A stretch of DNA of 45,349 nt from Escherichia coli (GTDB lineage: Bacteria > Pseudomonadota > Gammaproteobacteria > Enterobacterales > Enterobacteriaceae), in the NCBI RefSeq assembly GCF_003334405.1, contig NZ_QOWM01000023.1; one strand, written 5' to 3'. A program made the translations under genes and the position numbers. Below the pieces are notes generated by a model. It saw nothing but the letters and a program-made list of their open reading frames with translations. It was not told the origin of the DNA and searched no databases. Each line of letters begins with the position of its first letter. Position 1 is the first letter of the stretch. Below are positions 2,892 to 5,879 of the stretch, in pieces.

Positions 2892-3023
2892 CATATCTCC
2901 CTTATCTGGACCGATGGCCCACGATAATTTAGCAGAATGTTAACAAACTAAAATACACAAAACTACCAGAACCCCGTGGCAACCGGTGCCTGATGTTGAC
3001 CGTCCGAACAGTCAACATCGCGA

Positions 3024-4289
3024 TTACGGTTTGAAGTCCAATGGCGCGTTTTTGAACACTTCATATACTGCCTGGCTTGGTGGTTTCGGGATCTTCGCAA
3101 GTTTAGCTGCTGCCAACGCAGCCTGACAAAGTGCGGGATCGCCACCTTCAGGTTTGATATCCAGTAACATACCATCGGGTGCCAGTTTTATGCGCAGCGT
3201 ACAGGTTTTGCCTGCATAGGACGATGCGTCATAGAACTTACTTTCGATAGCAGATTTAATCTGCCCGGCATAGTTATTGATATCGGCCCCTGATGCGCCA
3301 TTGTTTTTAGTATTACCACTCCCGGCAGGCGAAGCATTGTTCCCTTTCGCCCCTCCCCCCGTTTTCGGTGCATTCTTACCAGAGCTTAGCTCACCGAAAA
3401 TATCATCTGCCTCTGCGGCCGCTTTTGCTGCAGCGGCTTTTTCAGCTGCAGCTTTTGCCGCTGCCGCTTTTTTGTCTGCGGCGGCTTTTTCTGCCGCTGC
3501 TTTCTTATCAGCTGCTGCCTTTTCAGCAGCCGCTTTTTCTGCTGCTTTTTTGTCGGCTGCAGCTTTCTCTGCTGCCGCTTTCTTATCAGCTGCAGCCTTT
3601 TCAGCAGCCGCTTTCTTCTCAGCTTCTGCTTTGGCTTTTTCAGCAGCTTCAGTTGCCGCTTTCTTTCTTGCTTCAGCTGCAGCTGCTTCTGCCGCTTCCG
3701 CTTTCTTCTTCAGTGCCGCAGCGGCTGCCTCGGCTTTTTTCTGCGCTTCGGCTGCGGCTTTGGCGGCTTCTGCTTCTGCTTTTTTCTTTGCGTCTGCAGC
3801 CGCTTTCTTCGCTGCTTCTTCCGCAGCTTTAGCATCTGCTTCGGCCTTCGCTTTAGCATCTGCCGCCGCTTTCGCTGCCGCCTCTTCAGCTTGCTTCTGC
3901 TTTAACTCGGCCTGTTTTGCGGCTTCTTCAGCCTGCTTTTTCTGCTCCTGAGCCGCTAACCGCTCTTTCTCAAGTTGCTTCAGGCGTTCCTGTTCAGCCG
4001 CTTGTTTCTCACGCAGTTCTTCAGCAGCCTGCTGTTCCTTCATCTTGCGCTGTTCATCAGAACGCTTCGCGCTTGATTCCTGGCTTTGCATGCGTTTGTA
4101 CTGCTCAACTACCGCACCTGAATCAACCATGACAGCGTCGATGGACGAACCACCGCCGCCTCCGGCTGAAGCTTCTATATTCTCATCGAACGAACTCCAG
4201 ATCAGCGCCGCAAATAAGATGACATGCAGCACTGCTGAAATAATTATCGCCCGCTTGAGCTTGTCGTTTTGTTCGGTTGCCTTTGACAC
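3024..4289 (-). CDS. tolA: Tol-Pal system protein TolA
   Basis: 421 aa: MSKATEQNDKLKRAIIISAVLHVILFAALIW membrane anchor, long Ala/Lys/Glu-rich helical domain II, Gly-rich linker and C-terminal domain III. Confidence 0.96.
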   Translation of the reverse strand: MSKATEQNDKLKRAIIISAVLHVILFAALIWSSFDENIEASAGGGGGSSIDAVMVDSGAVVEQYKRMQSQESSAKRSDEQRKMKEQQAAEELREKQAAEQERLKQLEKERLAAQEQKKQAEEAAKQAELKQKQAEEAAAKAAADAKAKAEADAKAAEEAAKKAAADAKKKAEAEAAKAAAEAQKKAEAAAAALKKKAEAAEAAAAEARKKAATEAAEKAKAEAEKKAAAEKAAADKKAAAEKAAADKKAAEKAAAEKAAADKKAAAEKAAADKKAAAAKAAAEKAAAAKAAAEADDIFGELSSGKNAPKTGGGAKGNNASPAGSGNTKNNGASGADINNYAGQIKSAIESKFYDASSYAGKTCTLRIKLAPDGMLLDIKPEGGDPALCQAALAAAKLAKIPKPPSQAVYEVFKNAPLDFKP

Positions 4290-4353: not shown

Positions 4354-4782
4354 TTAGATAGGCTGCGTCATTAAACCAACCGATTTCACACCCGCACTAT
4401 GTAACAAGTTCAGTGCTTTAATTATTTCATCGTAAGGCACATCTTTTGCGCCACCGATCAGAAAGACCGTTTTCGGGTTGGCCTTGAAACGGCTGGACAC
4501 TTCCGCCACCACCTGCTCTGGTGGTAAACGCTCCAGGCGATCTTTCTCAACCACCACGGTGTACTGACCAATACCAGACACTTCAACAATCACTGGCGGA
4601 TTATCGTTACTGCTCACCGCCTGTGATTCAGTAGCGTCTGGCAGATCGACCTCCACGCTCTGGGTGATGATGGGCGCTGTCGCCATAAAGATCAGCAACA
4701 GCACCAGCAGTACGTCCAGCAACGGTACAATGTTGATTTCGGACTTGAGATCGCGACGACCTCGTCCACGCGCTCTGGCCAT
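4354..4782 (-). CDS. tolR: Tol-Pal system protein TolR (ExbD/TolR family)
   Basis: 142 aa, MARARGRGRRDLKSEINIVPLLDVLLVLLLIFM, single TM helix. Confidence 0.95.
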   Translation of the reverse strand: MARARGRGRRDLKSEINIVPLLDVLLVLLLIFMATAPIITQSVEVDLPDATESQAVSSNDNPPVIVEVSGIGQYTVVVEKDRLERLPPEQVVAEVSSRFKANPKTVFLIGGAKDVPYDEIIKALNLLHSAGVKSVGLMTQPI

Positions 4783-4785
4783 GGC

Positions 4786-5879
<1,094 letters not shown>

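Follow-up and report, generated by a model that had tools for sequence, protein, structure and literature searches.

Does the repetitive DNA that encodes the long helix of TolA gain and lose units among strains of Escherichia coli, and by which route do such changes arise? The question was raised by a first-pass annotation of a 45,349-nucleotide stretch of E. coli DNA (hereafter the window), which described imperfect direct repeats at 3400-3950 in minus-strand coding sequence for TolA domain II, expected them to undergo slipped-strand indels, and proposed an alignment of tolA in which in-frame indels of domain II would be scored. TolA conveys force from the TolQR motor of the inner membrane to the outer membrane and is the entry route for colicins and filamentous phages; its domain I makes contact with the motor, and its domain III with TolB, colicins, and the phage protein g3p. 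Besides the paper cited below, a further study of the intragenic tandem repeats of E. coli tolA was reportedly made by Zhou, Vanoirbeek, Aertsen, and Michiels in 2012 (Res Microbiol 163:316). The repeat tract is the subject of Zhou, Michiels, and Aertsen (2012, PLoS One 7:e47766; PMC3477136). Repeat-number variation in tolA was already published in 2012 (PMC3477136), and our finding of it is correct and ordinary. The agreement between a prediction of length variation made from sequence alone and the published biology provides a clean positive control. The present analysis adds a sample drawn from 5,426 complete genomes and shows that length changes recur on identical haplotypes. In addition, the last six repeat units (TR8-TR13) appear not to vary, and two more small arrays, located in the predicted first helix of domain II, are polymorphic as well.

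Gene identity and protein architecture

The identification of the open reading frame at 3024..4289 on the minus strand (GTG start, 421 aa, stop codon at 3026..3024) as tolA is secure, and nothing contradicts it. The gene is 100% identical over its full length to annotated tolA in K-12-type E. coli genomes, and a nucleotide search of the complete-genome collection returned a tolA match in 5426/5426 E. coli genomes. The product scores 554 bits against the NCBIfam equivalog NF007065 (cutoff 213) and 308 bits against TIGR02794 (cutoff 59.45). Additionally, it matches full-length TolA chains in the PDB over aa 1-421 (E=2.6e-227) and the solved domain III structures over aa 292-421. The open reading frames of the window follow the order ybgC-tolQ-tolR-tolA-tolB-pal on the minus strand, and by operon position they comprise ybgC (5475-5879), tolQ (4786-5478), tolR (4354-4782), tolB (1599-2894), and pal (1043-1588). 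The same neighbors, tolR and tolB, are annotated adjoining tolA in all 15 of the variant loci fetched for comparison. A scan of the tolA-tolB spacer of the window for a promoter or terminator found none. A mobile, plasmid-borne tolA was considered and rejected; the PLSDB records with tolA are 0.28-5.4 Mb in size and non-mobilizable, indicating pieces of chromosome filed as plasmids.

Three domains can be assigned along the protein. Domain I is a transmembrane helix whose SHLS residues (S18, H22, L29, and S33) are readable in the translation, domain II is a long helix of ~aa 60-302, and domain III covers ~aa 334-421. Window positions 3400-3950 encode residues 114-297, which make up most of the Ala/Lys/Glu-rich domain II, as had been proposed at first pass. 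A single-sequence AlphaFold2 model predicts an alpha/beta domain at aa 334-414 and three helices (aa 3-34, 60-200, and 204-302), the last two of which are separated by a break at aa 201-203; the global confidence of the model is low (pTM 0.25), and its secondary-structure boundaries alone were used. The predicted two-helix layout with its break at 201-203 agrees with the published domain II, a helical hairpin ~220 Å long (PMC8928145). A structured domain II is required for outer-membrane stabilisation and for efficient colicin import (PMC10666116).

A tandem-repeat tract in the predicted second helix

The canonical tract, TR1-TR13, occupies 3411..3617 on the minus strand (aa 225-293) and comprises 13 imperfect units in head-to-tail arrangement, each 15 or 18 nt long, a multiple of three. 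A unit corresponds to five or six residues that follow the pattern K(K)AAA(E/D/A), and the series reads KKAAAE KAAAD KKAAAE KAAAD KKAAE KAAAE KAAAD KKAAAE KAAAD KKAAAA KAAAE KAAAA KAAAE. The tolA gene of MG1655 was likewise described as containing 13 imperfect repeats of 15 or 18 bp (PMC3477136). Degenerate units lie directly 5' of TR1 at 3618..3665 on the minus strand (aa 209-224; KKAATEAAEKAKAEAE). Superimposed on the single units is a higher-order 78-nt duplication at 3461..3616 on the minus strand, with copy 1 at 3616..3539 and copy 2 at 3538..3461, in which 69 of 78 positions are identical and one period equals five TR units (15+18+15+15+15 nt). Tandem Repeats Finder resolved nested periods of 15, 30, 33, 45, and 78 nt over 3412-3632, and its top array was 3461-3619 (period 78, 2.0 copies, 88% matches, score 255). 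The same program found two smaller minus-strand arrays, a 24-nt array encoding ADAKAKAE (3812..3876, ~2.2 copies) and a hexamer micro-array (3766..3781, 2.7 copies), which reads GCTTCT on the plus strand and AAGCAG/GAAGCA on the minus strand. According to the AlphaFold2 layout, the TR tract would lie wholly within the second helix of domain II, and the 24-nt and 6-nt arrays would lie in the first.

The repetition exceeds what an Ala/Lys/Glu-rich composition yields. The 39-mer that the first-pass annotation had quoted is exact at 3571-3609 on the plus strand, and a second copy with 3 mismatches is found 78 nt away at 3493-3531, compared with a shuffle expectation of 0 matches. Within the coding sequence of aa 114-297, 20 repeated 15-mers were observed versus a mean of 1.6 in codon-order shuffles, of which 0/1000 reached 20. 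The best 78-nt self-match (69/78) was likewise reached in 0/1000 codon-order shuffles (mean 51.6, maximum 61). When the protein was held fixed and synonymous codons were shuffled, 69/78 was reached in 5/1000, suggesting that the 78-nt copies are slightly more alike in DNA than the protein repeat demands. Exact repeats in the tract reach 20 nt at most. Thus, the direct repeats reported for 3400-3950 are real, as the 39-mer copy, Tandem Repeats Finder, and the shuffles indicate, but the true tandem tract is confined to ~3411-3665. The remainder of 3400-3950 is low-complexity A/K/E/Q coding sequence with small arrays only.

Natural alleles differ by whole repeat units

Two evenly spaced draws down the ranking of the 5,426 complete E. 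coli genomes yielded 116 distinct genomes with a full-length tolA match. The 1266-nt allele was present in 79 of them (68%), and the other 37 fell into 14 length classes of 1185-1311 nt, giving 15 classes in all. The commonest non-modal lengths were 1311 nt (nine genomes), 1299 nt (six), 1185 nt (four), 1251 nt (three), and 1290 nt (three). The difference from 1266 was a multiple of three for 36/37 non-modal lengths (P ~2e-16 under random indel lengths). The expectation that TolA length varies between strains was therefore borne out, and the alignment proposed at first pass did recover in-frame indels of domain II in E. coli. The published survey of 234 isolates reported 8-16 repeat copies, with 13 copies in 66% (PMC3477136); our modal share of 68% agrees with that value, and proteins of 394-436 aa correspond to ~8-16 units.

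Fifteen variant alleles (L001-L015) were fetched, 14 of which are annotated as intact CDSs of 394-436 aa. Protein and DNA alignments of these alleles placed every mapped indel in domain II (gene nt 429-786), and domains I and III showed no length change. The indels of the repeat tract are located in TR1-TR7 (3617..3507 on the minus strand), which vary between strains, or in the degenerate units just upstream (aa 209-224), and TR8-TR13 (3506..3411 on the minus strand) are complete in each of the 14 intact variants examined. Single-event indels in or across the tract measure 15, 30, 33, 45, 63, and 81 nt, i.e., whole numbers of 15/18-nt units; the 63-nt deletion is represented by L014. Copy number thus varies between strains with the reading frame kept. 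The degenerate units at 3618..3665 are lost or swapped for canonical units in four natural alleles (L004, L007, L009, and L012). The replacement of this segment by canonical units in L004, L009, and L012 needs several events or a conversion-like exchange and is not explained by one unit gain or loss. Projected onto the AlphaFold2 boundaries, the natural alleles would shift the second helix from ~99 residues to ~72-114.

Length changes were also observed in the two small arrays of the predicted first helix. The L005 insertion, after gene nt 429, comprises 24 nt that are 100% identical to the adjacent array copy and produces the 1290-nt allele; this length occurs in 3/116 genomes, with the site sequenced in L005 and assumed for the other two. 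L015 carries 6 additional nt (AAGCAG) after gene nt 508, within the hexamer array. No mention of either array was found in the available portion of the 2012 paper (PMC3477136).

A single allele is annotated as frameshifted. L013 (1310 nt) has lost 1 nt in a G6 run of the domain II/III linker (window 3360..3355), and this loss may be a sequencing (homopolymer) error. A repeat-driven frameshift was rejected for L013, as the G6 run lies outside the repeats. All repeat indels of tolA keep the frame, and the only frameshifted allele is mutated elsewhere in the gene. Changes of the kind that define an on/off phase-variable locus, in which a change in length shifts the reading frame or the spacing of a promoter, are thus not what the repeats of tolA undergo.

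Route of unit gain and loss

The region at 3411-3665 on the minus strand is almost certainly an intragenic, in-frame tandem-repeat tract of E. coli tolA, composed of 13 imperfect 15/18-nt units, a few degenerate upstream units, and a 78-nt higher-order period, in which the gain or loss of whole units alters only helix length, mostly via RecA-dependent recombination, and natural TolA measures ~394-436 aa. In the proposed mechanism, misalignment between diverged units would delete or duplicate whole units, which would leave the reading frame and the heptad-free helical K/A/E pattern unaltered and change only the length of the periplasm-spanning helix. Domain I, domain III, and the last six units would stay constant, and the 421-aa, 13-unit form would be carried by about two thirds of strains within the natural range. 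By the published genetics, recombination dependent on RecA would be the main route, and RecA-independent events would make up a minor share.

The junctions of the natural alleles provide a record of these events. The deletions L002, L003, L006, and L007 share 5-12 nt of exact homology at their junctions, as do the insertions of 45 and 33 nt in L010 and L011. Exact homology reaches 38-39 nt for the perfect duplications L001 and L008 and 35 nt for the separate 24-nt duplication of L005 in the 24-nt array. The perfect adjacent duplications among natural insertions measure 30, 33, and 24 nt. The RecA route has a weak point in that exact repeats do not exceed 20 nt and junction homology is 5-12 nt for most events. 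Homologies of this size are short for efficient RecA-mediated exchange.

The first-pass annotation had attributed the indels to slipped strands. Replication slippage, i.e., RecA-independent slipped-strand mispairing between neighboring short repeats, finds typical substrates in a tract whose longest exact repeat is 20 nt and most of whose junctions share 5-12 nt, and in several natural alleles 24, 30, or 33 nt have been duplicated perfectly next to the original copy. As the main source of the indels, however, we consider slippage unlikely in view of the published genetics. A stop-codon reporter allele of tolA contracted at a frequency of 6.9e-5, with contractions that pre-existed according to a fluctuation test (PMC3477136). 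Contraction fell to 15% of the wild-type level in a recA mutant, a residue that slippage could supply, but rose 3.3-fold in the absence of the UvrD anti-recombinase and was unchanged in mutS (PMC3477136). These effects indicate homologous recombination between units as the main route, and the authors read recombination as the primary mechanism (PMC3477136). The RecA dependence was determined solely for the contraction of a single engineered allele, the stop-codon reporter, with detergent as the selecting agent (PMC3477136). Recombination rather than simple slippage thus appears to be the main route of contraction, and the slipped-strand mechanism retains at most the minor RecA-independent share. 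For the natural alleles, sequence by itself cannot separate slippage from recombination.

A 5-unit deletion predominated among the laboratory contractions (PMC3477136), and the 78-nt period, which equals five units, would offer a simple reason for this predominance. Deletions may reach the less conserved upstream units, and TR12-13 were never involved (PMC3477136). Expansions numbered 0 among 150 PCR-screened colonies (PMC3477136).

Recurrence of the length changes

The age of the length differences was assessed on haplotypes defined by the 903 nt of flanking tolA sequence that never carry indels. Identical K-12-type flanks carry TolA of 410, 421, and 431 aa, and identical O157-type flanks carry 394, 404, and 424 aa. 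Two B2-like haplotypes with identical flanks are associated with 416/429 aa and 420/436 aa, respectively. Additionally, a single indel, accompanied by zero substitutions, separates each of L001 and L003 from the window allele. The presence of different lengths on identical flanks and the lack of substitutions in L001 and L003 indicate that length changes are repeated and recent relative to point substitutions. The 421-aa length is retained in alleles down to 98.3% identity, which is consistent with a favored modal length.

This persistence of the 421-aa form, and the fact that the common classes (1311, 1299, and 1185 nt) accompany particular substitution backgrounds, could also suggest that the length classes are old, stable alleles spread by descent or horizontal exchange and that the tract is not unusually mutable. 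Such a history is very unlikely, as two or three lengths occur on identical flanks in four separate backgrounds, single indels unaccompanied by substitutions separate L001 and L003 from the window allele, and the contraction frequency of 6.9e-5 was obtained in clonal culture (PMC3477136).

Antisense open frames and the reality of the length classes

The strand opposite tolA contains two long stop-free open reading frames, at 3277..3951 (plus strand, 224 aa, low complexity, AAFSAAAF...) and 3368..3832 (plus strand, 154 aa), and all three antisense frames of the region are open for 171-225 codons. The open antisense runs of 143/168/183 codons compare with codon-order shuffle means of 66/121/159. 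The frames are open largely because GCN, AAR, and GAR codons contain no stop when reverse-complemented, and codon composition contributes to the antisense open reading frames no less than repetition does. The first-pass annotation had regarded these frames as spurious products of the repeats; they are indeed real as open frames and are by-products of the coding sequence, but the shuffles assign codon composition an equal part.

The length of the two frames (224 and 154 aa), together with the openness of all three antisense frames, might be taken to indicate real overlapping genes for whose sake the repeats are kept. We regard this as extremely improbable, since the products are low-complexity A/F/S/L strings, the openness follows from GCN/AAR/GAR usage and survives shuffling of codon order, and natural indels respect both the reading frame of tolA and the integrity of its repeat units. 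The frames were rejected as genes on their low-complexity composition and on the shuffles that retained long open frames, and antisense open reading frames within tolA should not be called genes in annotation.

There is practically no chance that the length classes are assembly or sequencing artefacts of a repetitive, low-complexity region, for although the region is repetitive and the 1-nt loss of L013 resembles a homopolymer error, nearly all non-modal lengths (36/37) keep the multiple of three, the classes recur in independent genomes (1311 nt in nine, 1299 nt in six, 1185 nt in four), sequencing reads greatly exceed the repeat units (15-78 nt) in length, the mapped repeat indels are all whole units with the lone frameshift outside the repeats, and PCR sizing and sequencing of 234 isolates gave an equal range and an equal modal frequency (PMC3477136). 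The differences in tolA length between strains are genuine alleles, not annotation errors.

Function of the tract

Published experiments connect repeat number with the performance of the cell envelope. At least partial complementation of a tolA deletion was seen in every isogenic strain, whether it had 2, 6, 8, 13, 26, or 39 units (PMC3477136). Deoxycholate tolerance increased with repeat number, tolerance of 0.6 M NaCl at pH 5 had its optimum at 6-13 units, and plating of phage fd was optimal at 13 units (PMC3477136). The constructs that define these phenotypes have 2, 6, 8, 26, and 39 units (PMC3477136), and the natural differences amount to 5-27 residues. By these experiments, all tested lengths would work, and repeat number would tune deoxycholate tolerance, salt tolerance at low pH, and fd plating. 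The selected property may be helix length, i.e., reach or stiffness across the periplasm. A mutable in-frame tract lets a clonal population vary its envelope robustness and its susceptibility to phages and colicins with the gene retained, as has been demonstrated experimentally (PMC3477136).

It is possible, though less likely than not, that the tract is functionally split. TR8-TR13 (3506..3411) may form a fixed module, perhaps a CpoB/YbgF-binding surface, and TR1-TR7, the degenerate upstream units, the 24-nt array (3812-3876), and the 6-nt array (3766-3781) may together serve as an adjustable spacer. A CpoB/YbgF-binding surface was proposed by the authors of the 2012 study for TR12-13 (PMC3477136). 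If the split holds, several sites, spread over the two arms of the predicted hairpin, would be open to independent tuning of helix length by selection. The lengths of individual lineages, such as the O157-type 394/404/424 aa, would then reflect niche-specific envelope stress or phage/colicin pressure.

Relation to other repeat-bearing loci

The closest counterpart is the tract of the 2012 study, which is the same locus in the same K-12/MG1655-type allele, with 13 imperfect units located C-terminally within domain II (PMC3477136). Both data sets share the participation of degenerate upstream units in deletions and the exclusion of the last units from them (PMC3477136). They differ in extent, as the invariance observed here covers TR8-TR13 in 14 intact variant alleles, whereas the paper reports it for TR12-13 only (PMC3477136). 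Repeats in tolA also serve as MLVA markers in other species, namely the Salmonella Enteritidis VNTR SENTR1/SE-10 with a 45-bp unit (PMC2430564) and Klebsiella pneumoniae VNTR locus 53, whose unit is listed as 11 bp (PMC3948817). These loci resemble the E. coli tract in being VNTRs in the Ala/Lys-rich-helix part of tolA that are polymorphic between isolates, but they differ in species and stated unit size, and they are likened here by description, not by sequence.

As a spacer, TolA domain II is comparable to TonB domain II, with its Glu-Pro/Lys-Pro repeats, and to the length variants of Lpp, in which the length or rigidity of a simple spacer sets periplasmic reach. The spacer of TonB, a polyproline-type helix, shares no sequence similarity with that of TolA, and the Lpp length variants were engineered and are not natural.

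The term "contingency locus" was applied to tolA by the authors of the 2012 study (PMC3477136). The tract shares with the contingency loci of Neisseria, Haemophilus, and Campylobacter hypermutable intragenic repeats that generate heritable, reversible variation within a clone. Classical contingency loci, however, have units of 1-7 nt and switch on and off by slippage frameshift, whereas changes of the 15/18-nt tolA units invariably keep the frame and leave the gene on, with protein length as the graded outcome. Rearrangement in tolA is also mostly RecA-dependent and mutS-independent, unlike that of contingency loci. Thus, the tolA tract is an in-frame intragenic VNTR, not an on/off phase-variable locus.

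Length variation of tolA

The length of tolA varies even inside an O157:H7-type background, since three O157-type alleles (L007, L009 and L012) share identical flanks (903 nt of flanking gene sequence without indels) and an A-to-D change in 'EADDKAAEE', yet encode TolA proteins of three lengths, 394, 404 and 424 aa. Apart from the main repeat tract, domain II contains in its first helix another polymorphic array, the 24-nt mini-array encoding ADAKAKAE (window 3812-3876, minus strand), which shows a perfect 24-nt duplication in allele L005. The length class of this allele, 1290 nt, accounted for three of the 116 complete E. coli genomes sampled, with the duplication site sequenced in L005 only. 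In the sections consulted, the 2012 PLoS One article on tolA repeats (PMC3477136) makes no mention of this mini-array. A hexamer micro-array, AAGCAG in 2.7 copies (window 3766-3781, minus strand), carries one extra unit in the allele of strain Combat11I9 (L015), adding 6 nt and 2 aa.

Losing tolA is costly to the cell. Therefore, the frameshift of L013 (NZ_CP146588.1), annotated as a tolA pseudogene, is probably a homopolymer sequencing error; it stems, in this one genome, from the loss of one G in the G6 run of the Gly-rich linker between domains II and III (window 3355-3360, minus strand).

Genomic context of tolA

Directly 3' of the tolA stop codon, the tolA-tolB spacer contains a strong RNA stem-loop with a stem of 12 bp and a loop of 4 nt (window 2992-3019, minus strand); the minimum free energy is -22.8 kcal/mol for the fold of 2975-3035 (minus strand), with a z-score of -2.87 against shuffled sequences. 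The stem-loop lacks a U-tract, and a simple scan did not identify it as a terminator or as a promoter; it might influence how the mRNA is processed, or how stable it is, between tolA and tolB. Nine PLSDB 'plasmid' records (0.28-5.4 Mb, all non-mobilizable) also contain tolA; these are chromosome sequences or chromosome fragments filed as plasmids, and a mobile tolA was rejected.

Apparent constancy of the last six repeat units

The unit order of the last six repeats, TR8-TR13 (window 3411-3506, minus strand), was constant in 14/14 intact variant alleles, a small sample, and all length changes in these alleles fell upstream of them. The 2012 paper (PMC3477136) states such constancy for TR12-13 only, tying it to YbgF/CpoB binding.
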